Shown here: piece after piece, positions 1 to 62,415 of the stretch
Numbering within the stretch: the stretch's first letter is position 1
How the letters are laid out: each line of letters starts with the position of its first letter
NCBI GenBank assembly: GCA_041671645.1
Contig: JBAZBD010000001.1
Location: 799,234-863,233, forward strand
Source of the DNA: Patescibacteria group bacterium
Lineage (GTDB): Bacteria > Patescibacteriota > UBA1384 > XYA2-FULL-43-10 > 1-14-0-10-43-13
Length of the DNA stretch: 64,000 nucleotides
Direction: 5' to 3'
Position numbers and translations under genes: made by a program
The notes under the pieces: model-generated
What the model was told of the DNA's origin: nothing
The model's database searches: none
What the model saw: the letters and a program-made list of their open reading frames with translations, nothing else

Positions 1-14
1 GCTGTTTTTTTGAT

Positions 15-42
15 ATAAAAATCCCCGCCGGAGAGGCGAGGA
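15..42 (-). terminator. Rho-independent terminator, copy A of an identical 28-nt repeat
   Basis: The minus strand reads CCTCGCC-TCTCC-GGCGGGG (hairpin 23..41, one G-U pair) followed by ATTTTTAT. The same 28 nt recur at 1789..1816. Confidence 0.7.
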
Positions 43-55
43 GAGGCAGGTAGTA

Positions 56-1720
56 TCAAACGCGTCTGGCGTTAAAACGCCATTGAATCATCAAGTGAAT
101 TCGCCTATAGAGTTTGATTGGCCGCTTGAGCGCCATTCTTAAATCATAGGGCAATTGTGAAAAAATGAGAATTTGCTTGCCACGATCACCAGCAGCGATA
201 ACAATTCTCTCAGCCCAGGCAGAGCCTAGACTTGGTGCATCGTCATGCCAACGAATTGACCCGGCTACCGAAAGGAGGAAAAAGTTTAGATCTAGCGATT
301 CTTTGCGGATACTTTCGAGCGCTTTCTTGGTCCTTTCAAAATCAAATTGAGTGATCGATCGCAAGATTATCCGCCATTTTTCCCTTGGCCAAGCATGCAA
401 TAGTTTGTGTAATTCTGAATCATTTTCGCAACGCAACAACGCTCCCGAAAAATCGAGTCGAAGTTCTCTTCTGATTCGACTGAGTGACTGAATCGCCTCC
501 TGACGGCCAAAAACTGTTTTTAATAGATTTCTGATCTTGTAGGTAGGCGGATTTTCGTTCAGAAAATCATTTGAAAAGAGCGGGTTCCTGGCCATACTGC
601 TGATCGCCAGGATTTCCATCGAGGAAAATCCCAGTTTGCGGAAATGCTCCTCAAGTATCTCCAGCACAGCTGGAAATATTTCAATATTGTGTTCTATCCA
701 AAGAATCCGCAGGATTTCTTTTCTGCGAGCTTCATCGCTAAACCAATAGCCCCAGCTTGTTGTAGCTTGGCCCCACCTCAGAAGAGCAAGATGGTTGAAA
801 TCTGAACGAGCGAAAGCGCTGACAACTTCATGCCGCCACAAGGGACGACGATGAAAATTCAGGGCGGACTCAAAAACCCATCCCAAAAACCGAGGTGTAA
901 CCTCAAACTCTTTGGCGTACCGAAGAATTTGAGTGATCTCGGCAATTGTCCCATAACGAGAACGAATTGGCTGAAGAGTAATCTCGGCAAATTCTGGTAC
1001 GGATAATCCGATAGACCGTACCAGGTCAATCGCCAATGATATCTCGGCCTCGTTCTCGGCAGAAGTATTTCGATAATAGTAGCCCGACCTAACAATATGC
1101 TTTAGAAAGGAGACAACTGTTTGGCCGCTAAAGCCTTCTGCATAAAATTGGTCGAAGAGAGATTTTGTTTTCTCATATCCCAAAGCCAGGGTTATGTAGC
1201 AGTATTCTCCCCTGCGATCGTTCCACGCCCTCTCAACATCCCAGTATTTTTGCAAAACCGGTGGTTCGGCAATATCGCTCGGCCTTGGCGCCAAAGCGAT
1301 CCCCCTTTCCATTTCATCTTCACGTTTTTGCTCTATAGCAATTATCAGCTTAGACAGAGGGACATGATGCCGAATGCAACTATGTGAGTAACGAAAATCT
1401 ATGGCTCGATGGACTAATTGACTTCGGCCGGTCGCAAGATACTCTGCGATATCGTCTCCATACCAAGTCAACCAAATATGTTCGTTGACGAGCTTGAGAA
1501 ACTCAACAAATATCGATTTACCATATTTGTTCTTGACTGTACTTAAGCTTTTTCTGGCCTCGTTGATGCCAGATTGCGATGGATGATAGTGGGAAACGAC
1601 ATACTCCACTACTTTATCAAAAATGTCATGCCATTCTGGAAGAAGGGCGGCGACGCCTTCAAACAGATTTTGGAATGCTTTTGTCCGAAGACAATCGTCT
1701 TTCCTGGGCATTGTGCTCAC
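56..1720 (-). CDS. Hypothetical protein, 554 aa, Trp/Arg-rich and probably all-helical, with no family recognised
   Basis: Long ORF with an AGGAGG RBS upstream of the ATG (GAAGGAGGTGAGCACAATG). It has its own promoter and terminator. I see no catalytic or TM motif. Confidence 0.75.
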   Translation of the reverse strand: MSTMPRKDDCLRTKAFQNLFEGVAALLPEWHDIFDKVVEYVVSHYHPSQSGINEARKSLSTVKNKYGKSIFVEFLKLVNEHIWLTWYGDDIAEYLATGRSQLVHRAIDFRYSHSCIRHHVPLSKLIIAIEQKREDEMERGIALAPRPSDIAEPPVLQKYWDVERAWNDRRGEYCYITLALGYEKTKSLFDQFYAEGFSGQTVVSFLKHIVRSGYYYRNTSAENEAEISLAIDLVRSIGLSVPEFAEITLQPIRSRYGTIAEITQILRYAKEFEVTPRFLGWVFESALNFHRRPLWRHEVVSAFARSDFNHLALLRWGQATTSWGYWFSDEARRKEILRILWIEHNIEIFPAVLEILEEHFRKLGFSSMEILAISSMARNPLFSNDFLNENPPTYKIRNLLKTVFGRQEAIQSLSRIRRELRLDFSGALLRCENDSELHKLLHAWPREKWRIILRSITQFDFERTKKALESIRKESLDLNFFLLSVAGSIRWHDDAPSLGSAWAERIVIAAGDRGKQILIFSQLPYDLRMALKRPIKLYRRIHLMIQWRFNARRV

Positions 1721-1758
1721 CTCCTTCTAGATTTCAAAGTCATAATGGTGCTTATTAC

Positions 1759-1787
1759 TTCATACCTTGTATCACGCTCAAAGTCAA
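1759..1787 (-). promoter_or_regulatory. Sigma70-like promoter for the 554-aa ORF
   Basis: The minus strand reads TTGACT (1787..1782), 17 nt, TATGAA (1764..1759), located between terminator copy B and the RBS. Confidence 0.45.
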
Positions 1788-1788
1788 A

Positions 1789-1816
1789 ATAAAAATCCCC
1801 GCCGGAGAGGCGAGGA
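1789..1816 (-). terminator. Rho-independent terminator, copy B of the 28-nt repeat
   Basis: ATAAAAATCCCCGCCGGAGAGGCGAGGA is identical to 15..42. It lies 7 nt past the stop of the lipoprotein gene. Same hairpin plus T-run on the minus strand. Confidence 0.75.
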
Positions 1817-1822
1817 TTAGAA

Positions 1823-3607
1823 TTAGCGCTTGTGCAATCCGGAAAATTTAATAGCCGGATATGCGCCACGAGTTCTAGTTTTTGGGGCAGAAAATCCGAC
1901 ACCTGGAATTGTTAGAACAAGATGTCGATCTACCTTGAGATTATTTCCATGATCATCCTGGTAACAGGCGTTTATAATGAAAGTTCGGGCCTGCAGATTT
2001 GGGCTCAAATCAGAGATCATCAAACTTCCGTCACAGGAGGCCAGCAGGGAAATACCTAACTCTTCAGTATCGCCTGGAGCGATAGCGAAATCCATTTCTA
2101 CTGGAGCTGAAGGAAACACCTCATCCGCAGCTATGCTGGGGTCGTACCAGCTGAGGTAGAGCCAATCGCCCGAACCATCATATTGGTCGAAGGTAATGCT
2201 TTTAACCAGGAGTTCGGAATTACCTCTATTGTTCAAAGCAATCGTCCAATTCCACTCGGTATCTGTGGGAGAGGCTTCTATCCTGGAGCTGGGAGTGATG
2301 GTCAATCCAAGCTGGCCGGTAGCGATCGGCCTAGCGTAATTAAGTAACTCCTTAACGCCACCATCGGTGTCTATCAACCCGTCATGGTCATGGATAGTCG
2401 TGATTTTAGTGATAGTTCCAAGAGTCATCTGGCGCAGATCGGTATGATCGGCTAAAGCACTTGCGTTCCCGACTATTAAGTCACTCCATGCTGCACCGGC
2501 TACCAATATGTAATTTACGTTTCCAAGCTGGACATTGGGCAAACCGGAATTTAGTTGAGTGAGAAAACTGCTATTAGCTGCGATCTGAGCGGTTGAGTAA
2601 GTATCGAATGCCGGCAAATATAGACCAGCACGAGCATTTTCCGGTTTATTGAGATAATCGTCCCTAAGATATGACATGATATTCTCAACTCTTCCCAATA
2701 TTGAGCCTTCGTTCGCCCCACAAATCGAGACGAAGGAACGAACATTTTTGGTAGCCTTGCAATATTCCAGAGCATAACGAGAGACCAGCGCTCCCATCGA
2801 ATGAGCCCAAATGTCCATTCGCCGATTTTTGATAGCTAGTACCTTGATACTGTACCCCAGATACCCGCCAGAACTCTCGATGTAGTCGCACCAGCTGTAT
2901 TCGTAGGCATAAATGTTGGAATACCTCTTGCTCGCAATGACTGCCTCGATAAGTCGATCAAAGACGTGCCTGGTGGCATTCCAACCATGAACAAGTATCA
3001 GATCATGGCCATTGGTCATATCGGGATTGGTATAAACCTGGACAAGATCCATTTTCCTTTCTGGCTTGGCCCAGCCCAACTTGCCTATCACGCCTGTGAC
3101 CTTTTTACCAAAGGTCGAGAAGGCTACTCGGTCAATGACGACTTTGGCACCCCATTTGAGGTACTCTGCCGAAGTCGCAGGCAATTTGCTGATCATAGCC
3201 CATTTACCATCTGACAGTTTGGTAAAAAATCCGTAGATGGCAGTGACGGCAGATGTCCTGCCGCCGTAGAGAAGCACTTCCGATGGAAGGTCGATAACTA
3301 TATCATCGTTGACCTCGGCAGAAACTGTAATAGTAACTTCTGGCTCTGACCCCACAGATTTGAAATTAGAAATCGCCGGAGTGCTAGTAGGAGTAGCACA
3401 GTCAATACGCACAGACGTATCTGACAAGAAAGTACCAGCGGGAACAGTGACAGTAATGCCACCGATTGATTTAGAACTGTCGATTTCGGAGTCGGCAGTG
3501 ACCTGAATTTGGCCGGAAGTGCCCGGCTTTGTCAGGTTAGTGCTATTGTTGGTGCCGCAACCGGCGACCAGAGTGACAAGTAACAATACGAAAAAGCAAC
3601 GTAACAA
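1823..3607 (-). CDS. Secreted lipoprotein with a central alpha/beta-hydrolase (lipase/esterase-like) domain
   Basis: TTG start 8 nt after GGAGG. Signal peptide with lipobox LVAGC. Motifs LILVHGW and the nucleophile elbow AHSMGA (GxSxG) are flanked by beta-rich, Ig-like N- and C-terminal regions. Confidence 0.7.
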   Translation of the reverse strand: MLRCFFVLLLVTLVAGCGTNNSTNLTKPGTSGQIQVTADSEIDSSKSIGGITVTVPAGTFLSDTSVRIDCATPTSTPAISNFKSVGSEPEVTITVSAEVNDDIVIDLPSEVLLYGGRTSAVTAIYGFFTKLSDGKWAMISKLPATSAEYLKWGAKVVIDRVAFSTFGKKVTGVIGKLGWAKPERKMDLVQVYTNPDMTNGHDLILVHGWNATRHVFDRLIEAVIASKRYSNIYAYEYSWCDYIESSGGYLGYSIKVLAIKNRRMDIWAHSMGALVSRYALEYCKATKNVRSFVSICGANEGSILGRVENIMSYLRDDYLNKPENARAGLYLPAFDTYSTAQIAANSSFLTQLNSGLPNVQLGNVNYILVAGAAWSDLIVGNASALADHTDLRQMTLGTITKITTIHDHDGLIDTDGGVKELLNYARPIATGQLGLTITPSSRIEASPTDTEWNWTIALNNRGNSELLVKSITFDQYDGSGDWLYLSWYDPSIAADEVFPSAPVEMDFAIAPGDTEELGISLLASCDGSLMISDLSPNLQARTFIINACYQDDHGNNLKVDRHLVLTIPGVGFSAPKTRTRGAYPAIKFSGLHKR

Positions 3608-3686
3608 TTAGTACACCTCCAAAAAGAGATTTTCGTTGTCAAAGGACAACAATTAGTCTTATCTTAGAACAATAACTGGCTGATAG

Positions 3687-3714
3687 CAAACACCTCACAT
3701 ATGTGAGGTGTTTG
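3687..3714. terminator. Palindromic hairpin, probable bidirectional terminator (family member 1)
   Basis: CAAACACCTCACATATGTGAGGTGTTTG is a perfect inverted repeat with A/T-tract flanks, immediately downstream of the stop at 3721. Confidence 0.6.
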
Positions 3715-3720
3715 GTTGCT

Positions 3721-4188
3721 TTAGAACGATGTTTTGATGAATTGACCGATAACGAATCCAATCACGATCACCACCATACCGATCAGGAGATGCTCAGAAA
3801 TCGTTTCCCATTTTTTATCTTTTGGCGCAATGATGTAGTTCAATAGACCAAGCAGTAATGTGCCCCAAGCAATACAGATGATGAGGGCAACCGTGGAGGA
3901 GAAAAAGGCCAGAGGGATTAGGAATGAGAGAGCGATCACTAACTTTGAGAAATAAGTGCTTAGGGTGGCTGTCCAAATTTCCTTCTTGGTGTGAGTTTCC
4001 TCAGATTCTTCAGAAATATGAATCCCCAAAGCGTCCGAAAAAGCATCGGCGAATGCAATAGTCAAAACGCCGCCGATTACGACCGCCCTAGTGGCATCGC
4101 TTGCAGTCAAGCCCACTATCAATCCGAGCGTTGTAATAATGCCAGAAGTAGCACCGAAGCTGAAACCGATTTTTGATGAGTGATCCAT
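3721..4188 (-). CDS. Small integral membrane protein, possibly VIT1/CCC1-like (iron/manganese transporter family)
   Basis: 155 aa with about 4 TM segments. The pattern GATSGIITTLGLIVG...AFADAFSDALGIHISEESE resembles the VIT-family N-terminal pattern. GGGAGG RBS. Confidence 0.45.
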   Translation of the reverse strand: MDHSSKIGFSFGATSGIITTLGLIVGLTASDATRAVVIGGVLTIAFADAFSDALGIHISEESEETHTKKEIWTATLSTYFSKLVIALSFLIPLAFFSSTVALIICIAWGTLLLGLLNYIIAPKDKKWETISEHLLIGMVVIVIGFVIGQFIKTSF

Positions 4189-4303
4189 GTGCCTCCCAAT
4201 AATTATGAGCTAACGTTTCCTATGATGTAATTGACTACGACAATCGCCCCGTAAAAAGGGGCGACAATTTGAGTATCCAAAATATAAAGTGCGAATAATT
4301 GTG

Positions 4304-4380
4304 ATGGTCGGGGATGCGAGACTCGAACTCACGACCTCTCGGTCCCAAACCGAGCGCTCTACCAACTGAGCCAATCCCCG
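4304..4380 (-). tRNA. tRNA-Pro (anticodon TGG), CCA encoded
   Basis: The reverse complement reads CGGGGAT...CTCGG-TTTGGGA-CCGAG...GGTTCGAGTC...ATCCCCG-A-CCA. The acceptor stem is perfect and the cloverleaf is canonical. Confidence 0.9.
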
Positions 4381-4389
4381 AACTAAATT

Positions 4390-4418
4390 ATCTTACATTA
4401 AATCAAGAATTTTTTCAA
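4390..4418 (-). promoter_or_regulatory. Promoter for tRNA-Pro
   Basis: The minus strand reads TTGAAA (4418..4413), 17 nt, TAAGAT (4395..4390), about 9 nt upstream of the mature 5' end. Confidence 0.5.
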
Positions 4419-4446
4419 TCTTTTCGCGATATTTCTTTGGTATGAA

Positions 4447-6402
4447 CTATTCATACCTCAAAGCTTCCATCGGCGAAAGCTTGCTCGCTCGTCTAGCCGG
4501 ATACACACCAGCCAATAATGAGACTAATGTTGTGACCACAATCATTTCTAAGGCAAAGAGCATTGGGGTAGCGAATATATTGAGACTGCCATCAATTGAG
4601 CTAACCTGCATTAAATAATTGATCAGAGCATTGATCGATTCCCCAAAAATCCAAGCGCCAACAACGCCAGCGATAGAACCAGTCAGACCGAAAAGTAAAA
4701 CTTCATACTCAAAAATCTTTTTGATGTCTCGGTTCGTGGCACCGATCGCCTTCATCGTACCGACCTCGTGTGTCCTCTCAAGCAACGAAATGGTCATGAT
4801 ATTGATAATTCCAATCAAGGCAACCATCAGAGCCACACCGCCGATAATACCTAAGATTATTTCTGTGATAAAAAAGATCTTGTCGACTTTCTTGATTAGA
4901 TCAACGACAGAGGTGGTCTGATAGCCAAGGTCGTCGATAGCATCCCTGGCGGCCTCCACATGCTTCCGATCGCTCACTTTCGCCTTGAGAGAGCTATATA
5001 TCGTGGTCTCATTGATCTTGGCCAATTCGTCGATAGGTAGGAATATCGCCGCGACAAGTTCATCATTGGAAACCCCGACGATTTTCTTTTTTGAGGTAGT
5101 TTCGTGAATGCTGGTCAAATCATTTGTATCCTTCGGCACGACCAAAAACGTAAGGTCCACCGTCTTGTTCAAAGCTGATGTCGGCTCCTTGATATCAAAA
5201 TTTTTGAGTGCTGCTTTGGATATCACTATCTCGTCATTTTCATCAAAACCTTCGCCTGCCACGGCGTACACTCCTTCAAAGGAGAGGGCTGACGCCTCGA
5301 GACCATAGGCGATGACCTGCTGAGCGCTGCTATCAATGGCGATTCTGGCAGTCGAAGTGATCGAAGGACTGACTAGGGTCACGTTTTGCACGTTTTTGAG
5401 CTCGAGGAGGGCGGTCTGATCCAGATGTTTAGTCGAATTTTTGTCGACATTTACATTTATCGTAACGAGAGAATCAAGAGAGGCAAGCTGATTTGAGGTA
5501 ATATTTTGCAAACCCATCCCCAAAGAAACGAGGGTGACGATAGACCCAACCCCCAAAGCTACGCCCAAGGCCGTCAGAAGTGTCCGCATCTTTTTGCTTA
5601 TGAAATGAAGTCGGGAAATCCGCAATATTTCCAGAAAACGAAGAGAGCCCCTCTTCTTTGGCACAAAATATTTCAAGCCATCATCTTCTAGATTATCGGG
5701 TGCAAGCACGCTTCGGGTCGCTTCGCTTTTGACAATCTTGCCATCCTTCATATGCAAAATTTTGTCACCGTAGTGAAGAAAATCCGGATTGTGAGTAACT
5801 AAAACGACCGTCCTGCCCCACTTCGTGCTGATGGTTTTGATCATTCTCATGATTTCAAGCCCCGTCGGCTCGTCCAAATTGCCGGTTGGCTCGTCCACTA
5901 GCAAAATCCAAGGATTGGCGACCAGTGCTCTAGCGATGGCGATCCTTTGTTGCTGTCCCCCAGAGAGTTCCACGGGCTTGTGATTCGCGCGGTCGCTCAA
6001 TTCCACCACAGAGAGCAATTCGCTCGCCCGTACATAAGCTTTTTTGCGGTCAACTCCAGAGAGAATCAGAGGCATTGCGATATTATCAATGGCAGAAAGA
6101 GTAGGAATTAAATTAAATTGCTGGAAAACCATCCCGATTTTGGTCCGACGATATTCCGCGAGTTCTGCCTCGGAAAGTGTGTAGATGTTTTGGTCATGCA
6201 CCCAAACTTGGCCGGCGGTCGGCTTGTCCAGTCCTCCCATCAAGCTAAGCAGGGTCGTCTTGCCGCAACCAGACGGACCGTAAATGACAACAAACTCTCC
6301 CGGCATGATATCAGTCTCAACACCCTTCAAGGCTTCAATATATTGATCTCCTACAAAAAAAGTCTTCTCGAGACCGGAAATTTTGATCACTGGTTTAGTC
6401 AT
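4447..6402 (-). CDS. Fused ABC transporter: N-terminal ATPase plus C-terminal FtsX/MacB-type permease
   Basis: Walker A GPSGCGKTT, signature LSGGQQQRIAIARAL, Walker B LLVDEPTGNLD. These are followed by a TM, a large extracytoplasmic domain and 3 C-terminal TMs (FtsX fold). I chose the start at MTKPVIKISGLEKTF (ATG 6402); the longer track ORF (6486) overlaps the upstream gene. Confidence 0.85.
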   Translation of the reverse strand: MTKPVIKISGLEKTFFVGDQYIEALKGVETDIMPGEFVVIYGPSGCGKTTLLSLMGGLDKPTAGQVWVHDQNIYTLSEAELAEYRRTKIGMVFQQFNLIPTLSAIDNIAMPLILSGVDRKKAYVRASELLSVVELSDRANHKPVELSGGQQQRIAIARALVANPWILLVDEPTGNLDEPTGLEIMRMIKTISTKWGRTVVLVTHNPDFLHYGDKILHMKDGKIVKSEATRSVLAPDNLEDDGLKYFVPKKRGSLRFLEILRISRLHFISKKMRTLLTALGVALGVGSIVTLVSLGMGLQNITSNQLASLDSLVTINVNVDKNSTKHLDQTALLELKNVQNVTLVSPSITSTARIAIDSSAQQVIAYGLEASALSFEGVYAVAGEGFDENDEIVISKAALKNFDIKEPTSALNKTVDLTFLVVPKDTNDLTSIHETTSKKKIVGVSNDELVAAIFLPIDELAKINETTIYSSLKAKVSDRKHVEAARDAIDDLGYQTTSVVDLIKKVDKIFFITEIILGIIGGVALMVALIGIINIMTISLLERTHEVGTMKAIGATNRDIKKIFEYEVLLFGLTGSIAGVVGAWIFGESINALINYLMQVSSIDGSLNIFATPMLFALEMIVVTTLVSLLAGVYPARRASKLSPMEALRYE

Positions 6403-6666: not shown

Positions 6667-7386
6667 TTAGCTATTAAACCATTTCGCAAAGCCCTCAAAG
6701 GCACGCGACAACGCATCGATAATCACTTGGAAAATCGAAAGATCTTTGGCTGGATTTTTGGTCACAAACATCTGATCATCTGACTCGGCAGAATCAGTCG
6801 CGCCCTTGTTCACCGCCTTGATCTTCAGATGATATGTAGTAGCTGGTTTGAGTTTGTCCAGAATAATGGTATGACTCTGGTTTAGGCTCTCCTCTACCGC
6901 GGTCTCTGAGCCATATGATAGAGTTTCGCCATAAAACACCTGGCCGGTCGAGAGTATTTCTGTCTTGAAGGTCACAATCGCTTGAGATTCCGTCTTGCTA
7001 GTCGCGCCAGCTTCGATTTTGATTGCGGTGACTAAAGGCCTCCCAATCACGTCAATCGCCGAGGCGGAAGTAAACGAAATATTTGTGTTTGACACACGAT
7101 AAATATACGCGGCCAATGCAGTCACGTTTGAATCCATGTAGAAATTCAAATCGGTTTGGCCAAGCGTTGAATATGTTTTGCCTCCGTCCCCGCTCCTCTC
7201 GACGGTGACTGTGCCCTTGCCTTTCGGCCACGACAGAGCAAAGCCCGCCGTGTCCTTGGTCGAAATATTCGAAACTGTCAATCTGTCTTCAGCCGAAACT
7301 AATCCGATCTGGAAGAGGCTTATCAGTGCAGCAAGACCCAGGGCGACTAACCATTTTTTCTTGTTTAGAAACATATCTTTTTCCAT
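6667..7386 (-). CDS. Secreted protein with FN3-like and purple-acid-phosphatase-N-like beta-sandwich domains (239 aa)
   Basis: Signal peptide ending VSAEDR. The pattern AIVTFKT...VFYGETLSYG...HTIILDKLKPATTYHLKIKA parallels the last ectodomain module of the giant protein. It starts 3 nt after the giant ORF's stop. Confidence 0.65.
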   Translation of the reverse strand: MEKDMFLNKKKWLVALGLAALISLFQIGLVSAEDRLTVSNISTKDTAGFALSWPKGKGTVTVERSGDGGKTYSTLGQTDLNFYMDSNVTALAAYIYRVSNTNISFTSASAIDVIGRPLVTAIKIEAGATSKTESQAIVTFKTEILSTGQVFYGETLSYGSETAVEESLNQSHTIILDKLKPATTYHLKIKAVNKGATDSAESDDQMFVTKNPAKDLSIFQVIIDALSRAFEGFAKWFNS

Positions 7387-7389
7387 TTG

Positions 7390-8320
7390 TTATTTATCGC
7401 GATCGATCTCTATCTTCCTTGAAACAGTTTGGAGCTTCTCCTGGGCATCCATATGCGTAGCGTCAGAAGGTTTGTATCCAGCTTTGGCAACCAGGAGTTT
7501 GTATTTGCCCTTTGGCAGGACGGTTGAGAATTTGCCCTTTTCGTTTGTGACTGCTGTTCGAATTAATCTTTTGCCTTCGCCGTCCATGATTCTGACTAAT
7601 GCCAATGAAACTCCCGAGTGATTGACGCTATCTAGGACATTGCCCCAAGGTGAGACTTTGACGAAAGACTTGATGTTGACGTACCAAAGCAGTGGGAAGA
7701 GCAGAGCTGAGACCAGGGTGACCGTGTCACGGTGACTGTGAGCCAAGCTATTCAGGATAGAGACGGTGCCAAAAATCAGGAAGCCGAGGGAAACGTAGAC
7801 CAATACTTTTTCGACAACCCCGATTTTCTCGATAAATGAAAATCTCTTGGCGATGCTCTTGTCGTTCATCGAAAGCAAAATATTTGGTACGATCAGTCCT
7901 TCTTGCTCGCTCTTAACCTCGATGATCTGACCCTTTTTGTAGAAACCTGGGGCTTCAGAAACTTCATATAGATCTTTGGTCACCTCAATCTCATATTTGC
8001 CTGGATCAGCGACAAAGCTGAAGTTGCCTTCGATATCAGAATATGTATTGGCTACCGGCCTCTTTGAGAACGAGCCAGGGAAAGTTTGAGTTAATTTGAA
8101 GAGCGTCAGTTTGGCTTGAGCGATTGGGATATAAGTGCCAACCTCAAGTACTCGGCCCCACTTGCGACGGCTTTTCTTGGTGCCGAGAGAGGCAAGGGCG
8201 AAGATCAAAGAGCGAATGTATTCAGGAAGTGAGAATAGAGTGGCGGCATTGGCCAGTGGAGCGGCGGCGGCAGAGATAATCGCTATGCCAGCGACAGCAG
8301 CGGTGCTGGCTGGAGTAGTT
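7390..8320 (-). other. C-terminal anchor region of the giant protein, where TM helices alternate with two CarboxypepD_reg-like beta-sandwiches
   Basis: An Ala-rich hydrophobic stretch (AAVAGIAIISAAAAPLANAATLF...LIFALASLG) and KKSRRKW are followed by a sandwich (SDIEGNFSFVADPGKYEIEV). Next come two TMs (VLVYVSLGFLIFGTVSIL, LVSALLFPLLWYV) and a second sandwich (VRIMDGEGKRL...NEKGKFSTVLPKGKYKLLVAKAGY). Confidence 0.55.
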
Positions 8321-11300
8321 GTCGATGTTGGTATGCCAAAGACTACGGGTTGGCCTGAATTGTTGACGCCCACGATTTGCATCTGACCAATAATATCGCG
8401 AACTTTCATGGCTGTGCCAGAGAGATTGGAGATAACAGTATCTAGGACCGATTGCTCCTTGAAAATATCCTTGGTGGCGAAAGTAAAGTCTGTCGATTCG
8501 GCAGTTTGGCCATATTTATCTTTGGAAATGACAGCGAAATGGTAAGTTTTGTTGAAGTCCAAATCGGACAAAACAACTGTATGGAAAGAGTTGAGCCCAG
8601 TATCAACCTCGGTCGTGTAAGGGTATGGAGCAGAAGCGCCATATTTGACTTGAGTGGTGGCTGGAACGGTAGTTTTCCAAGTGATGGTGGCTTGAGCCTT
8701 CTCTGACATCAACTCGCTAGGAGTTGCCTTCACGTCTGATATCTCCAAAGTGCCCTCGCCTGGCTCATCTGGCGGCAGGATAACACAGCCAGAACAATCT
8801 ACAACCGTAGTTGTCTGGAACTCAGCTGCCATACTAGCTGTCTGGTTCTTGGCTAGATCAAAAGAGAATACGGAGTAGTTGAATTGGGTATTTGGCGTGA
8901 CTGTGTCGACATAAGAAGCGTAGCCAGAAGCGTCGACCTGGACGCCAGAGGTTGATTCAGAAATTATATTGTTGCCGTTTTTGACGATAGTGTAGCCGAG
9001 CAACCCAGAGCCAGTGTCAGTACTGGCCTTCCAGCGAAGCATCACTCGGTAGTCAGAGTTGACCCGATCAGAGATGTCGAAAGCTTCTACCTTTTCTAAT
9101 GATGATGGGAGGACCGTATCTAAGATGAAGGTAAGTTCCTCTGACCAAGCGAACTGATTGCCTAGATTATCGTTTGCGGCCACTCTGACGTAGTAAGTGC
9201 CGTCGGCCAGAGCACTGGCACCATCCAAGGTCAGAGAATTTGAAGGAGAAGTCAGCGTAGAGAGAGACAGAGCGTCATTTGCGTTGGCGCAGCCAGAAGT
9301 CTTGCAGATCTTGATACTGTAATTTAAAATTCCTGAATTTGTATCTGTTGCGGCTGGCCAAGTCAAAGTGACGGCTGGCTGATTGTAATATTCAATGTTG
9401 TCGATAGTGTTGGTCTTACCAGATACCGTTGGCTTGCCAGGAGCTGTTGGCTTGTCGCTGTCTGGCTTGCCAGAAGCTTGATTGGAGGCGGCTGAATAGT
9501 TGTCGACGCTATCGATAGCTTCAACTTTGTAATAGTATGTGACACCGCTTGTGACGTTGCTATCAATGTAAGTGGCAGTCGAAGATAGAGTCGTATAAGC
9601 GATCTTGTTCGTACCGATATTTGGTGTGAAATCGGCCTCGGTGGAACGGAAGATAGCGACATTGGCGAAGTCTGTGTCGGTCGGATTGACCCAAGAGAGC
9701 GAAACAGAAGCGCTAGCAGAGAGAGCGGTCAGATTCGTCGGTGCGGATGGCGCTGTGATATCTAGGATAATTGATGCCGAAGCAGTCGGCGACTCATCAC
9801 CATCGATATCTTTGACTTTCAGGTAAACCGTCTTCATCCCGTCAACAGTAGGAGCGGCCAAAGTCCATGACTTGCTGGTTGAGAATGTTTCATACTCGCT
9901 GCCAGAGAAATCAGGAGAATTTGAGACCTTCATTTGTGTGCCAGTGCTAGAAGAAAGCGTAAGTGTTTGATCTATTTGATTTGTCCTAGCCGAAGAGAAT
10001 GAGATCGTGCCAGTCGGCGGGAACCATTTGTTGGTATTGCCGAGATTGATCGAATTTGAAGGATCGATGACCGCACTGCTTAGATTCTTGGAGTTTTCGA
10101 CAGAAAGATAGGAAGTAGAGGTCGAGCCCTTTGGATCAATCTTCCATTGATCTGTACCTGTGCCGCCAGATCTACTGAGCGTGATATTTCCAGCAGAAGT
10201 TCCGTTCAAGCTTAATGCACCGTTGACCGTCTGAGTCGTATCAGAAGCGAAACTAATTGTTCGAGCCGCAGACGCTGTGGCAGATAGATTATTGAAAGTG
10301 TTAGATCCAGCGACCGTCTGACCTCCGATGCCATTCAAGGTAATCGTTGATGTGCCAGGATCTACCGTCATGCCAGTGAAATCAATATTCCCGCCGATTG
10401 ATACTGATGACGACTCAAGGTTCAATACGTTGGTGTCGTCAGTCGAACCAGTGTATCTAAAGATTCCATTTGTGAATTCATGAGTACCAGAGCCAAGATT
10501 TGCTGTTCCAACGCCATATACGGGATAGGCAAGATAAAGATTTCTTGCAGTTAGATTGTTGTCAACAGCATTTAACGTTGTCCTCTTGCCAGTAGTTATA
10601 GAATAGGCGTAGATGTCACGAGTCGTCGTCACATCAGATGACAGAGTGATCGCGACATCGTTTGTCACACCGGAATAAGCGACTGACCCTTGGCCGAAGT
10701 TTTGGCCAGCGACCGTGACGTCAGATGATGGTCGATAAACAAGGAAAGTCGAAGCAGTAAAATTTGCGCCTGTGTTGACGACGGCATCGCCGTCTGACTT
10801 GTACATCCTGAACGCATATCTGTTGTCACCGTTCAATGTACCACCCGCGTAAGTGTAGAGAACATTTGAGGTAGTGACCGATGAAATCGCGTTGGTAGTA
10901 TTGCCGTTGTGCGCCAACTTCAGATTATAGAAATCATAGGGAGCCGCAGCATAACCTTTTGATTGCAACGTTCCAGTCCCGGTCAAGTCAACAGTTGAAG
11001 TGCCAGGGGTGACAGTGATATTGCTCGTATCCCAATTCCCGCCAACATTGATCGTTCCTGATCCAAGATCAAGCTTATTGCCGATATTTGAAGCATTGCC
11101 ATGCGAAAGACTGCCGGCAATATTTGTTGTGCCGGATCCTAACTTCAAATAGCCAGGGATTGTAGCGTACTCGTTGGTAGAGGTCGAGCCAATAGTCAAA
11201 TTTTTGCACGTTAGATTGTGCGTACTCATATCGACGTAGCCGGCTGGAGTGGTCGTTCTATCTTTTGCGACTATGACATTGCTGTTGCCAAAGTTGAAAT

Positions 11301-14300
11301 TGCCAGTTGCCGTAAGAATCCCTGTCGGATCTTGTTGGAATGAAAAGGTTGTAGCAAAATTACTTGGCAATGTTATCGCCTTCTGTGTCATATCAGCAAT
11401 TTGTGGATATATTGCAAGGACTCCCAGTCTTGAATCAGCAGTCAAGTTGTTCACTGTCACGCTGTCGTTGCTCCTAGAGTACACGATGACAGCTTTGCCA
11501 ATACCCATTAGCGTCCCAGGGCCTACTGTGAACGCGCCAGCAGAGCCAGAACCCAAGCCCACAGAGACACCGGCGGTCATAGTAGAAGTAATCCCGGAGC
11601 CCGCCGCAACCAGGCTACCAAAAGTATTATGCATATCAGGGTTGGCAATATTCCCGCTAGACGACTGGGTCCATACGCCGGTAGAGGCGAGAACGCCGAC
11701 TTTGTTTGCAATAATTATGTCACCAGCAATATTAACCGACTTTCCACCGTCAACTAATGTTCCGGCGTTTGCAGTCAATGATTGGGCCGACACATTATCT
11801 TGGAAAGTCCACCCTGCAGTAAGCGTATGATTCGCAAGCAAAGAGATATTATTATTTAGCAAAGTCACATTCGGGTCGATAACCGCATCAACACCGTTGA
11901 AGATAAGATTTCCAAGTACTTGACCATTTGTCGTAATCGTCTTGCCGGTCGTTGTCGGATTGAAGTTGATAGTGCTAGTACCTTCGTTGAACACTGCGGT
12001 TGGATCGGCGGTCATGGTTAAGGAGCCAGCGATATTTAAGGTTTGAGCATTTGCGGTGAATGTGCCGGCGTTAAGAGTAAAGTCGCCATCATCGTTCAAA
12101 GTAGTATTTGCCGAAATTGTCCCGCTGTAGCCGGTGTTGACTGATAGTGATTTGATGTGACTCGTAAAGCTAGCATCAAGCGTCGAATCTTTGGTTGATG
12201 TAGCGTCGAAAATAACATCGCAAGTTGCGCTTGGGATAATATTTGCCGTCCAGTTATCAGCACTTGACCAATTGTCATCCGCTGCTTGGCCGTCCCAGAC
12301 GCAAGTGTTGTTGGCGGCGAACGACACAGAGATTGAATGAGTTGCAGTTACATTTGTAAATGTATATGACGATGGTAAAGTGCCACTGATTGCGCTGCCA
12401 TCGACGACAACATTTGAGATATAATAGCCGTCGCTAGGCGTGATCGTGTACTCCGGGCTAGTCCCATAATTGGCTAAATTATCTCCGAGAGGAGAGATAG
12501 CCCCGTTACTGCCAGCACTTGAGCTAATAGTGTATGTCTTCAAGGTGAATGTGGCGGTGATGGTCTTGTCAGCAGTAATATTTGTTAGTGCCGCACTACC
12601 TGTGCCAGCGGCATCGCCGCTCCAACCAGTAAAGTCAGAAGATACAGCAGGCGTAGCAGCAACTGTCAAATTAGCGCCGTAAGTCACTACTTGTGTCGAT
12701 TGATCGAGATCACCGGTACCATTGCCAGCCTTGCTGATGGTGACTGTGTAACTTCTGATTGTAAATGTGGCCGTAATTGTCTTGTTAGCTGTGATGTTGG
12801 TGAAAGATGCGTCCCCTGTGCCAGTTGCGTCGCCAGACCAACCAGCGAAGGTAGAAGAAGCCGCTGGTGTGGCCACAACCGTTAGATTGGCGCCATAATT
12901 TACTGTTTGGGTTGCCTGATCCAGATCACCCATGCCAGTACCAGTTGTGTTGATAGTAATAGTATAAGTCTTGATTGTAAATGTGGCCGTAATTGTCTTG
13001 TTAGCTGTGATGTTAGTGAAAGATGCGTCCCCTGTGCCAGTTGCGTCGCCAGACCAACCAGTAAAGGTTGAAGAGATGTCAGCTGTCGCGACAACAGTCA
13101 AATTTGCGCCATAATTGACATCTTGGGTTACTTGGTCCAGATCACCCGTGCCAGTACCGGCTTCGTTGATGGTGATAGTGTAGGTTTTGATTGTGAAGAC
13201 CGCAGTAATGGATCTGTCTGCTGAAACATCAGTCAGATAGCAGATGTTGGTAGCGACTGTATCGCAACCAGTCCAGGAAACAAAGTCCGAGGAGGCTGCA
13301 GCGGTCGCAGTGGTAGTAACGTCTGCGCCAGCGTCAACAATCTGGGTCACCTGGTCGAGACTGCCCGAACCGCTACCGTCAGAGCTGATTGTCACAGAGA
13401 AGTTGTCTAGCGTTGTAGTATTGTTGGTCGCGCCGAAATCAGTTGCAACATTGTCGCCATTTCTAGCTTTGATCTTATAAATATAATTGGTATTTTTGGT
13501 GAGACCAGTATTCGCAAAACCTGAATCTCCGCCCCAGTCAGCGTAGAGCTGCCAGTCCTCTGAGACCTGGGTCGTACCATCAGCGTTTTTGACATAATTC
13601 CAAGTGCTTCCAGCATCAGCTGAAACGGCAATCGCGTATCGTGTATTTGCATTTGGATTGCCATTCTTGTCAACGGTGATTCTAATGCGAGATGACGACA
13701 ATGTTGTGACCGTAGGCTGGCCAGGAACCGCAGCCAAAGTATAGACGGTATCAGAGTTTGAATCTTGGCTACCGCCGCCGTTGTAGACATTTACGTGACG
13801 AGTGTAACCAGTGTTGGCCGAGAGAGGAGTCTCGTTGTAAGAAGTCGAGCCGGCATCGAGATTTCCAGAAAGGCTAGTGTGGGCAGAGTCCTCAACTTTG
13901 TAACCAGTTTCTTCACTGGTAATATCGCTCCAAGTCCAATTGATCTGCGTTGTCGAAGCGGCTGAGCCAGCAAAATCATCAGGAGATTCGACGCCACAAT
14001 TAGAAGTCTCAAAGCTTGATGGCGCGGCGTATGGGCCGGTACCGTTTGCAGTTGAAGTAGCAGAAGCTTTCCAATAATAGGTAGTGGTGTTTGAGAGTCC
14101 AGTAATCTGCTTGCTGGTCGTCGCTGTTGTCAATGTGCCAATGTTGGTTGCCGCCGTATCAGTACCATAAGAAACCGTATAGCTGTCTGCGCCAGTAGCG
14201 GCTGTCCAGGTCGTGGTAGCTTTGGTAGTACAAATATTCGTTATGTTCAATGCTGTTGGAGCGGCTGGAGGAGTGACATCAGCAACTGAGGTCGAGGTGT

Positions 14301-17300
14301 AAATAGTTTCAACATTATCGCCATTCTTGGCCTTCACCTTCATCCAATATTGAGTATTGGCAGCAAGATCAACGTTGTCTTTGTCTTTCTTGAATAGATA
14401 AGTCGTTTCAGTCTGCCAGGCCATCGCATTTGGATCGTAGAAATTGCCAGCACCGGCGCCATCATTGGTCGAGTATTGAATATAATAGTTTGTCCCTGCT
14501 GGATTGGCGCTCGCATTAATAGTAGTATCCAGATGCCAAAGGTCTGCGTCAGAATAGTCCCCTGCGACAGTGGTGAAAGTCGGGACATTGGCCAGAGTAT
14601 ATTTGGGCGCCGCATATGCCGGAGCAGAATCACCGCCGGAATTGGTCGCTACTACCTTGGCACAATATTGAGTATTAACTGATTTACTGGCGATAGCCTG
14701 GCTGACTGCATCAGCCGACGTCGTAGTATCTGGTGTACCAGAATATGAAGCGGCAGAACAATCTGCGTTGCCGTCAGCAGTATAGACCTTGTAGCCAGTC
14801 TCGATCGAAGAATTGTCCGTCCAAGTCACATTAAACGTAGTCGACGAAGTCGGAGTAATAGTGACTCCCGTTGCGCTGGCCGGTGCGTCAAGAGCAAAAC
14901 TAGCAGTCACTGCGATATCACCTGCTACGTTTGAGTCAGTTCGAGCCGCGGTCATGACATCATCAGACCAGGAGACGAAGTGGTAATTGGCGGCAGGAGT
15001 AGCGGTAACTTGGGAGCCATTCGCACCGTAATTGACTGTTTGAGGCGTGGAACCAACGACTGAGCCATTGGCGCCAGCAGAGTAAGTAAGAGTGTGAGTA
15101 TCGATGGCAAAACTAGCAGTCACTGATTTATCGGTGATCACATTGGTTTCCGTTCTCGCTGCAGTTAGAACACCATCAGACCATGAAGTGAAGTGGTAAT
15201 TAGCAGCAGGGGTAGCGGTAACTTCTGACCCGTTCGCGCCATAGTCAACTGTTTGAGGAGTTATGCCAACTATAGAGCCGCCCGAACCGGCCGAGTAAGT
15301 CAAGACGAATGCGCTAGGGCCGCCATCAGTAATTGTCCAAGTGTGAGCACTAACTAGATGAGCTCGGCCGTCAGCCGCCGCTCCAAGAGTATACTTTTTA
15401 GTTGCAGCACCAAGAGTCACGTTGCTCTTCACTGCCTGTGCCGACCAGCCAATCAAAATATTACTATAATTAGCGTTAGAAAGTGCCGAGCTACTAAACA
15501 TATTTGTCATATCCGTCACATTAACCACATTCCAGCTGGCCAAGTTTTGGTTGAAGGCTGCCGCGGAGTAGAACATTTGATTCATATTAGTCACAGCGCC
15601 AGTATTCCAATTGCTGATGTTTTGGTTGAAGGCACTGTTGTTCCAGAACATTTCACGCATAGTGGTCACAGAGCCGGTATTCCAACTGCTGATGTTTTGG
15701 TTGAACGCCCAAGCAGACTCAAACATATAGGCCATATTAATCACGTTAGTTGTATTCCAACTACCGATGTTTTGATTAAATACAAAGGCGTTGTAGAACA
15801 TGGCGTACATACTGGTCACGGCACCAGTATTCCAGCTACTAATGTCTTGATTGAAAAGAGAGGAAGACTCGAACATGCAGTACATATCTGTTACGGCTGA
15901 CATATCCCAGCTATTCATCGAGGGTACAGTGTCAATACCGCTATCTCTAAAGGAATTTTTCATTGTTGTCGTACCAGTCGTATTCAAGACATCGGTGGCG
16001 GTGATTTTAAGATTCTTCGTGCCGGAAAAATAACCGTCGGAGTTACCCAGTCGGAGTGGACCGAATTGACTGATTTGAGAAAGCTTTAACTTGTCACCAG
16101 CGTTGTTAAATCTGAATCCAGTAATTGTCCCACCAATTTTGAGATCATAAATACCGCCGCTGGCGTAGGTGTGAGTGGTTTCAGCTTGGTTCCAGGTAGT
16201 GATGGTACTAGTGGAGCTGTCACCCCAGTCAACGATAAAGTTGTAGGTGCCAGTGGATTCTAGGGGCAGATGAATTTGGGTTGCCGTACTGGAACCGCTT
16301 GAAGTCTTGCTGGTATCCCACCTGGAGAGGAATTGGAGGGCAAAGTTGGCCGTGACGGTGATATCAACGGTGACATTGGTGTCGGTGCGGGCGGCAGTAG
16401 TATTGGCATCTGACCAGTCTACGAAATAATAGCCAGCTGCTGGGGTAGCGGTAACTTGTGAACCGTTGGCACCGTAGTCAACAGTCTGTGGCGATGTACC
16501 AACAACTGAACCATTCGATCCAGCGTTGTAGGTCAAGGTGTAGGTGTTGATAGCAAATGTAGCCGTAACTGAAATATTATCAGCAACATTGAGATCAGTT
16601 CGAGCCGCGGTCATGACATCATCAGACCAAGATACGAAATGGTAGTTAGCAGCAGGAGTAGCGGTAACTTCTGAGCCGCTTGAGCCATGGTCAACAGTCT
16701 GGGGGGTGGTACCGACAATCGAGCCATTGGCGCCAGCAGAGTAAGTAAGAGTGTGGGTGTCGATGGCAAAACTAGCAGTCACTGCGATATCACCTGCTAC
16801 GTTTGAGTCAGTACGAGCAGCAGTCATGACGTCATCAGACCAAGATACGAAATGGTAGTTCGCAGCAGGAGTAGCGGTAACTTCTGAGCCGCTAGCGCCG
16901 TGATCAATGGTCTGAGGGGTGGTACCGACAATCGAGCCATTGGCGCCAGCAGAGTAAGCCAAAGTATGAGTGTCGATTGCGAAACTAGCCGTTGTCGTAA
17001 TGTTGGCCGTGACGTTGGTATCCGTTCGGACTGGATTAGTAGAGTCATTGTCTGACCATTTGACAAAATGGTAATTGGCGGCAGGAGTGGCAACAACTTC
17101 TGAGCCGCTTGACCCATGGTCAACAGTCTGAGGAGAGCTGCCGATAACTGATCCGTTGGCGCCAGAGTTATAGGTAAGGGTGTAGACGGCCAAGGTTGAT
17201 TGGTCGGCAGTAGCAGAATAAGCAGTCGCAACACTATCGCCATTTGTAGCGGCCACGGAGAAAGTATATAGGGTGTTGGCGGTCAGACCGGTCACGGTCT

Positions 17301-33158: not shown

Positions 33159-33184
33159 AAACGCCTCATATGTCTGAGGTGTTT
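33159..33184 (+). terminator. Hairpin terminator after trpS (variant of the palindromic family)
   Basis: AAACGCCTCA-TATGTC-TGAGGTGTTT, 6 nt after the stop. Confidence 0.6.
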
Positions 33185-62385: not shown

Positions 62386-62415
62386 TTAAACGCCTCACAT
62401 ATGTGAGGCGTTTAA
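62386..62415. terminator. 30-bp perfect palindrome (family member 3), probable terminator of the cohesin-like gene
   Basis: TTAAACGCCTCACATATGTGAGGCGTTTAA, 36 nt beyond the stop at 62451. It shares the core CCTCACATATGTGAGG with 3687..3714. Confidence 0.55.

Follow-up and report, generated by a model that had tools for sequence, protein, structure and literature searches.

Two identical predicted terminators flank a gene for a rare, predicted all-helical protein in a Patescibacteria genome

A single gene between two copies of a 28-nt hairpin sequence

We analyzed a 64,000-nt stretch of DNA (hereafter, the window) from a metagenome-assembled genome (MAG) of a Patescibacteria group bacterium (GenBank assembly GCA_041671645.1, contig JBAZBD010000001.1, positions 799,234 to 863,233), near the left end of which a gene for a 551-amino-acid (aa) protein lies between two copies of a 28-nt sequence, ATAAAAATCCCCGCCGGAGAGGCGAGGA. 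The functional features of this locus are all on the minus strand, in the order lipoprotein gene, hairpin, promoter-like site, leader, ribosome-binding site (RBS), open reading frame (ORF), and second hairpin (Table 1). The two copies of the 28-mer show 0 mismatches to each other, and the complete expression unit that the original prediction, made from the sequence alone, had placed between them is indeed present. No third copy was found at up to 3 mismatches in the window, which represents 7% of the genome, and 100 shuffles of the sequence yielded 0 copies. With the giant repeat-rich ORF excluded, the 28-mer is the longest exact repeat of the window. The sequences that flank the 28 nt on the outer edges show no relatedness between the copies, so that the boundaries of the repeat are sharp.

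Table 1 Features of the locus at the left end of the window (positions are numbered along the plus strand of the window)
Feature	Position	Strand	Remarks
Second A/T-flanked hairpin, right half, AAAAAAACAGCCTTACGGCTGAATTTATTTTTTT	1..14		between the gene unit and the convergent tRNA gene beyond the left end of the window
28-mer, copy 1	15..42	-	predicted terminator of the 551-aa gene; stem 42..22, 8 pairs, then TTTTTAT
Coding sequence, 551-aa protein	56..1711	-	maximal ORF 1720..56, 554 aa from GTG
Shine-Dalgarno sequence AGGAGG	1720..1725	-	8 nt before the ATG at 1711; conserved in L002 and L018
Leader motif ACTTTGAAATCTA within the 24-nt block GACTTTGAAATCTAGAAGGAGGTG	1728..1740	-	conserved in homologous loci; candidate cis-regulatory element
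Promoter-like site TTGACT (1787..1782), 17 nt, TATGAA (1764..1759)	1759..1787	-	-35 box abuts the T-run of the terminator
28-mer, copy 2	1789..1816	-	predicted terminator of the lipoprotein gene; stem 1818..1794, 10 pairs, 5-nt loop, then TTTTTATTTT
Lipoprotein gene, 594 aa	1823..3607	-	lipobox LVAGC; weak alpha/beta-hydrolase, DUF7379, and Lipase_2 Pfam matches

The source being a MAG, a chimeric join or a collapse at the short repeat would be one way to obtain such an arrangement; we give this explanation next to no probability. A separate Logan assembly of sequencing run SRR18595301 (locus L001; comparison loci are designated here by L numbers), built with k = 31, a word length greater than that of the 28-nt repeat, agrees with the window at every position (0 mismatches) over 3713 nt, running through both copies and reproducing the gene order. 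Because this independent assembly spans the two copies, the order lipoprotein gene, 28-mer, 551-aa gene, 28-mer, tRNA gene can be considered real. The same contig reaches 54 nt past position 1 of the window, where it ends in the 3' end of a tRNA (...GGTACCA).

When folded as the minus strand, both copies form a GC-rich hairpin followed by a T-run, with 8-10 pairs, including 6 GC pairs, a 5-nt loop, and the tail TTTTTAT, at a minimum free energy (MFE) of -16 to -18 kcal/mol (-18.2 kcal/mol for the upstream hairpin, copy 2). The repeat starts 6 nt past the stop codon of the lipoprotein gene and 13 nt past that of the co-oriented 551-aa gene, and the CC..GG core of copy 1 starts at 14 nt from the stop codon. 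By these sequence properties, both copies are predicted intrinsic (Rho-independent) terminators, and the earlier description of the locus as a self-contained monocistronic unit between identical terminators holds. The transcription signals of bacteria of the Candidate Phyla Radiation (CPR) have been little studied. The resemblance to known intrinsic terminators extends to the GC-rich stem of 8-10 pairs, the 5-nt loop, the T-run, the location 6-14 nt past a co-oriented stop codon, and the conservation of the 3' arm and tail behind orthologous genes; what sets the locus apart is that two adjacent genes share a terminator that is identical base for base over 28 nt. Immediately upstream of copy 1, at positions 43-56 on the minus strand, the sequence TGCCTCTCC-TCGCCTCTCC forms a quasi-tandem repeat, with a unit of 9-10 nt, of the 5' arm and loop of the hairpin; this could be a product of slippage or a vestige of a copying event.

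The upstream copy is the predicted native terminator of the lipoprotein gene

Orthologs of the lipoprotein were identified in two comparison loci, L016 (54% identity) and L017 (42% identity), both of which retain the upstream synteny with a MacB-type ABC transporter (80% and 67% identity, respectively) and tRNA-Pro. In each case, the orthologous gene is followed by a hairpin, TCTCTGCC-ATAACT-GGCGGGGATTTTTATTT in L017 and TCCCCACC-ATCC-GGCGGGGAATTTTAAT in L016; the 3' arm and tail of the former, GGCGGGGATTTTTATTT, are identical to those of copy 2, and the element common to the hairpins behind the lipoprotein orthologs is GGCGGGGA(A)TTTT. The L017 sequence shares 17 nt with copy 2, including three T residues beyond the repeat boundary, at which copy 1 differs. 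Since the orthologs are followed by a conserved 3' arm and tail, copy 2 is predicted to be the native, ancestral terminator of the lipoprotein gene, as had been proposed in the original prediction.

The tRNA-Pro(UGG) gene of this region (4305-4380) is located on the same strand as the ABC transporter and lipoprotein genes in the window but on the opposite strand in L016 (3351-3426) and L017 (1440-1515). Furthermore, the interval between the transporter and lipoprotein genes contains VIT1 in the window versus two small ORFs in L016. These differences in strand and gene content around tRNA-Pro point to small local rearrangements in the interval.

The downstream copy and its counterpart in related genomes

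The closest homologs of the 551-aa protein show 76% identity (L002, L003, L023, L024, and L025). In these relatives, the gene is followed by the hairpin CCGCACC-AATT-GGTGCGG, which lies 14 nt from the stop codon, as copy 1 does in the window, and is not accompanied by a T-run; behind it, there are two more hairpins and then a convergent tRNA-Leu(UAA) gene. Comparison of this hairpin with the 28-mer shows that two pairs differ and that both are still paired (U.G to G-C and G-C to A-U). These pair counts come from a hand alignment and folding of the individual sequences; an automatic alignment of five hairpins was mis-registered by the unequal loop lengths and was not used. The relative's hairpin and copy 1 probably correspond in position; if so, a hairpin at this place predates the split between the two lineages.

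The distribution of the hairpin class CCNCNCC-N3-7-GGNGNGG is narrow. In the window, the two copies are its only members; in L016, the class is found only behind the lipoprotein ortholog, and in L002, L023, and L025, only behind the family gene, again 14 nt from the stop codon. In shuffled sequences, the class occurs 0.19 times per 64 kb. A 9-mer, CTCCGCACC, that is common to a terminator in L019 and the relative's hairpin was dropped because approximately one chance match is expected across all locus pairs.

The surroundings of the two genes differ among the genomes compared. Downstream of the lipoprotein gene, L016 encodes an AI-2E-family transporter, and L017 encodes MarR and an ABC exporter; no member of the family of the 551-aa protein was found in the L016 or L017 contigs. 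In L023 and L024, 127 nt separate the family gene from a divergently transcribed neighbor without a homolog in the window, and in the 76% relatives, the -35 boxes of this divergent pair form an inverted repeat, AAAGTCAAAA-N21-TTTTGACTTT (L023 454-580; L002 1-124; L025 60-192). To the left of the gene, the relatives contain tRNA-Leu, HNH, DHH, and MBL genes, and the neighbors of the gene in the window are the lipoprotein, VIT1, the MacB-type ABC transporter, an fn3 protein, and a giant ORF. The original prediction had named conserved synteny in all relatives, together with a genome-wide spread of the 28-mer behind unrelated genes, as an outcome that would tell against it; conserved synteny is not seen, with different neighbors in L016, L017, and L023/L024. 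The adjacency of the lipoprotein gene and the 551-aa gene is thus specific to the source lineage, through either gain in this lineage or loss in the relative. The break in homology sits at the junction of the terminator T-run and the -35 box, and the 3' side, comprising a bidirectional hairpin and the convergent tRNA gene, is common to the source genome and the 76% relative.

In the relatives, a small free-standing gene for an HNH endonuclease directly adjoins tRNA-Leu(UAA), a short way downstream of the family gene (L002 1998-2438; L023 2454-2924 on the minus strand).

Origin of the repeat

The explanation that we favor, and place just on the probable side, is a lineage-specific copying of the lipoprotein terminator onto a hairpin that was already present at the 3' end of an autonomous gene, with the junction being prone to rearrangement. 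In the ancestral state, the lipoprotein gene would have had its own terminator, and the 551-aa gene would have carried a hairpin of a similar type at its 3' end. The latter hairpin would then have been overwritten by, or homogenized to, the lipoprotein terminator located 1.77 kb away, either through short-tract gene conversion or through template switching between the neighboring hairpins; alternatively, the copying might have accompanied the rearrangement by which the lipoprotein block came to lie immediately before the promoter of the gene. As an outcome, the 551-aa gene would have acquired a complete stem and T-run. We infer both the mechanism and the direction of the copying, whereas the repeats, the hairpins, the orthology of the upstream copy, the lineage-specific adjacency, the protein family, and the fold class are direct results of the comparisons. 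The identity at 28 of 28 positions suggests lineage-specific copying or homogenization because the orthologous hairpins have diverged in the arm, the loop, and the tail, and the direction, from the lipoprotein terminator to the 551-aa gene, is suggested by the conservation of GGCGGGGATTTTTAT behind the lipoprotein orthologs. Copy 1 accordingly looks like a derived copy that has overwritten an earlier terminator rather than like an insertion scar, and neither repeat would be the end of a mobile element.

Several points weigh against this explanation. Recombination between hairpins of approximately 20 nt that are so diverged is mechanistically inefficient. The relative's hairpin and the 28-mer are alike at only about 16 of 22 positions, a likeness that, for any GC-rich hairpin at that location, we estimate to arise by chance with a probability of 2-3%, and the hairpin class was defined only after the sequences had been seen. 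The ancestral gene order cannot be polarized, with three genomes showing three different neighbors downstream of the lipoprotein gene. Moreover, L016 and L024 come from the same sample (ERZ27247358) and could represent one genome that carries the two genes apart. Finally, the count of the 28-mer covers the 64-kb window only, out of a source contig of 867,751 bp, so there might be more copies elsewhere in the genome.

The main alternative is that the 28-nt repeat is an insertion scar: a circular or linear DNA consisting of a promoter, a gene, and a terminator-like hairpin would have been integrated by a crossover in the lipoprotein terminator, duplicating 28 nt around a 1.75-kb cassette. This is close to what was originally proposed, namely, that a cassette had been inserted or duplicated by recombination at the lipoprotein terminator, and part of the evidence goes along with it. 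Exactly one complete expression unit lies between the direct repeats, the upstream edge of homology coincides with the junction of terminator and promoter, the adjacency of the two genes is missing in L016, L017, and L023, the family members occur in unrelated contexts in every genome examined, and the promoter and leader are conserved together with the gene across the family. However, the 3' repeat is not located at a synteny break, given that the hairpin and the convergent tRNA are also found in the 76% relative. Because this 3' side is shared, the gene does not appear to have moved as an isolated cassette bounded by the repeats, and the comparison of filled and empty sites that the original prediction called for has a split outcome: the adjacency is absent in L016 and L017, but the relative retains the layout of 3' hairpin and tRNA. 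That relative already possesses a related hairpin at an equal distance from the stop codon, and the boundaries of the repeat are those of a predicted functional terminator. The composition of the gene's DNA is not deviant (GC content 0.452 versus 0.449; GC content at third codon positions 0.443 versus 0.486 +/- 0.046), no recombinase is encoded in the 27 kb to the right, and in the other family members, the terminators are unrelated and the loci are not flanked by direct repeats of 11 nt or longer. Thus, of the original proposal, the lineage-specific adjacency and the break at the T-run/-35 junction stand, whereas the shared tRNA side, the pre-existing hairpin, and the lack of a foreign composition speak against it, and we regard an insertion scar as unlikely. 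Less likely still is that the 28-mer belongs to a family of terminator-like hairpins dispersed across the genome in low copy number, in the manner of repetitive extragenic palindromic (REP) sequences and bacterial interspersed mosaic elements (BIME) or of uptake-sequence terminators, two members of which flank the gene by chance. Terminator sequences are indeed re-used in this genome, as indicated by another terminator-like palindrome in the window, AAACRCCTCACATATGTGAGGYGTTT, with three copies at 85-92% identity, and a hairpin identical over 24 nt is found behind an unrelated gene of a Candidatus Lloydbacteria genome. Nevertheless, the 64 kb contain no further copy at up to 3 mismatches, no half-site, and no relaxed member of the class; the other terminator-like hairpins of the window are unrelated in sequence; and in the relatives, the class is confined to the two orthologous positions. 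By our calculation, a randomly placed family of more than about 40 copies would be unlikely to leave the other 62 kb of the window (7% of the genome) free of further members, and with a mere handful, a spacing of 1.8 kb between two of them would be improbable. REP and BIME, as well as the inverted pairs of the Neisseria DNA uptake sequence and the Haemophilus uptake signal sequence, are likewise short, repeated, hairpin-forming sequences at the 3' ends of genes. Their defining property is genome-wide abundance; in the 64 kb covered here, there are two copies, both at one locus.

We consider extremely unlikely the possibility that the hairpin is a recombination site, either attC-like or a target of an HUH or tyrosine recombinase acting in trans, that serves for the exchange of single genes among CPR genomes. 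All that favors it is the geometry, in which identical folded repeats enclose a single gene, and the scattered occurrence of the family. In integron cassettes, too, each unit comprises a single ORF, with folded and imperfectly palindromic repeats on either side. However, neither the core site GTTRRRY nor the inverse core site RYYYAAC of attC is present in the 28-mer or its flanks; instead of a promoterless ORF in a cassette array next to intI, the locus comprises a gene with a conserved promoter-like region and leader of its own, with no array in the visible sequence and no integrase there, including the 27 kb to the right. Furthermore, the terminators of the other family members are unrelated, the upstream copy is conserved as the terminator of the resident lipoprotein gene in genomes that lack the cassette, and the 20-nt core of the repeat is not represented in IMG/VR; nor did searches of phage and plasmid collections and IMG/VR produce any match. 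A wider version of this idea, to which we assign a very low probability, would combine a mobile CPR single-gene module, which enters the genome behind resident genes by recombining at terminator hairpins and leaves the terminator duplicated, with a product that is a new helical-repeat DNA-binding protein recognizing the GACTTTG motif (see below) or the hairpin itself; if true, this would be a "terminator-hopping" gene family of a selfish or regulatory nature. Two more conventional candidates were rejected. For a transposon or insertion sequence with a target-site duplication, the inner ends, TTTGACTTTGAGCG... and ...GATACTACCTGCCTC, do not form inverted repeats and the sole ORF has no transposase signature; a duplication of 28 bp far exceeds the usual target-site duplications. 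For a tRNA-targeted island, the repeat is not a tRNA sequence, the tRNA lies approximately 35 nt past the left end of the window behind a separate hairpin, and the 1.75-kb unit encodes no integrase. If the terminator was copied as we propose, the repeat itself carries little weight, as a clean and datable case in which the intrinsic terminator of one gene has been copied onto the next, and as a reminder that what lies between identical flanking hairpins is not necessarily a mobile element.

In searches of genome and metagenome contig collections, neither of which includes the source genome, the 20-nt hairpin core produced only GC-rich chance matches and one terminator from Candidatus Lloydbacteria. 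In the latter, 24 nt, CCTCGCCTCTCCGGCGGGGATTTT, are identical to the hairpin and form the terminator of an unrelated gene encoding a 125-aa protein (L004 6982-7005; L009 2994-3017; L010 5272-5295). We judge this match to be convergent or due to chance because a terminator has about 12 free positions and, by our estimate, the collection contains on the order of 10^8 terminators.

Promoter and leader of the 551-aa gene

The promoter that the original prediction had recognized, TTGACT and TATGAA separated by 17 nt, is present as a promoter-like site, although it was not called by a consensus scan because TATGAA, the -10 hexamer, does not end in the canonical T. Both homologous loci, L002 and L018, carry TTTTGACTTT unchanged, with TAT retained at -10. 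The leader is similarly conserved: the block GACTTTGAAATCTAGAAGGAGGTG is identical to its counterpart in L018 at 24 of 24 nt, even though the respective proteins are only 31% identical, and to that in L002 at 22 of 24 nt. A related motif, ACCTTGCAATCTA, is located at -43 from the start codon in L019, the protein of which is 27% identical; the background for the leader motif at up to 2 mismatches is about 4 matches per 128 kb. The conserved leader fits a cis-regulatory site inherited with the gene, and the motif of the leader and promoter may be an operator or a translational control site. Structure of the leader RNA has no covariation support, and a fold in which the RBS would be masked is weak (-6 kcal/mol); an Rfam search over positions 1-4500 of the window matched only tRNA-Pro and nothing in the leader. 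The gene is predicted to be autonomous and monocistronic, with a promoter and a leader that are passed on together with it.

The start codon is likely the ATG at 1711, giving a protein of 551 aa. The ORF of 554 aa described originally does exist, but the GTG at which it begins falls inside the RBS; the shorter version agrees with the NCBI annotation (MAG: hypothetical protein WC227_04255) and with the N-termini of the close homologs.

Two further observations concern this region. A related motif, ACYTTGMAATCTA, is found 28-43 nt before the start codon in four lineages (window 1700-1790; L018 60-137; L002 50-124; L019 7958-7970; L020 ~7300-7340), and GACTTTG occurs twice in the promoter and leader, with a spacing of approximately 40-44 nt.

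A rare family of basic, predicted all-helical proteins

The 551-aa protein had been described as an orphan with no recognizable family. With respect to curated libraries this stands, given that nothing meaningful was matched in Pfam (also at E <= 10), NCBIfam, PHROGs, PADLOC, or the sequences of PDB entries. A word-index search recovered only the protein itself and its 76% homolog; an exhaustive HMMER search, in contrast, identified homologs in 13 cluster representatives (clusters at 50% identity), of ~440-575 aa, which align end to end at 23-31% identity. Hence, the protein is not an orphan but a member of a small family. One of the family representatives comes from Candidatus Berkelbacteria, and the genomic contexts of the members are mutually unrelated. 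On current sequence data, this appears to be a rare family, so far from Patescibacteria/CPR samples. A second ORF in L019, of 557 aa, was examined and is not a paralog.

The amino acid composition of the protein sets it apart from its lysine-rich neighbors, as originally proposed, although the composition of the DNA, given above, is ordinary. Arginine makes up 9.4% of the residues versus 3.6 +/- 1.6% in the 37 other genes of the window (z = +3.6, the highest in the window), tryptophan 2.9% versus 1.2%, and lysine 4.9% versus 7.3%. The isoelectric point (pI) of the protein is 9.3, and most family members have pI values of 8.3-9.8 and a strongly basic C-terminal helix. We regard the protein as cytoplasmic.

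An AlphaFold model built from a 14-sequence alignment contains 31 helices and no strands, with a predicted local distance difference test score (pLDDT) of 86.2 and a predicted template modeling score (pTM) of 0.73. Comparison of segment profiles gave hints, at 44-51% probability, of modules of approximately 100 residues at positions 46-144, ~160-270, and ~403-540, so the protein is possibly built of repeated modules of this size. The remote homology and structure searches that had been suggested for this protein thus produced a confident all-alpha model but neither a hit in a curated library nor a convincing match to a solved structure. The structural neighbors are weak; the named natural proteins that recur among them are helical and DNA-binding, namely, mTERF (mTERF1/MTERF4), the DnaD domain, and TALE/BurrH, and many designed repeat proteins are listed as well. 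A search of structures in BFVD returned only noise from long-helix tape-measure proteins. The likeness to mTERF, TALE/BurrH, and DnaD-like domains consists in the all-alpha, basic character of the protein, the hints of repeated modules, and these weak structural matches. None of the 14 family members matches the mTERF profile (Pfam PF02536), even at E <= 10, and the protein is not demonstrably a member of the mTERF, TALE, or DnaD family. With these likenesses in mind, our best guess, at low confidence, is that the modeled helical-repeat scaffold binds nucleic acid and that the strongly conserved motif of the promoter and leader, with its GACTTTG repeat, would be the regulatory site of the protein.

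The gene appears to be of somewhat greater value than the repeat, in that it defines a rare, uncharacterized family of basic, predicted all-helical proteins of about 550 aa, with a confidently predicted architecture yet no convincing match among solved structures. Along with the unusual conservation of the promoter and leader, this makes the family a reasonable target for structural studies and for studies of DNA or RNA binding in the context of CPR-specific gene regulation.

Other repeats in the window

The palindrome AAACRCCTCACATATGTGAGGYGTTT, which is perfect, is found at 3688-3713, 33159-33184, and 62388-62413, each time at the 3' end of a gene, with one copy in the gap of a convergent gene pair; none of the 25 comparison loci contains it. 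The giant ORF at 7390-27273 on the minus strand encodes 6627 aa and consists of tandem modules of 213-216 nt and 75 nt, with an exact internal duplication of 341 nt (17488 and 18412); its product is probably a giant surface protein, a type that is common in CPR genomes.

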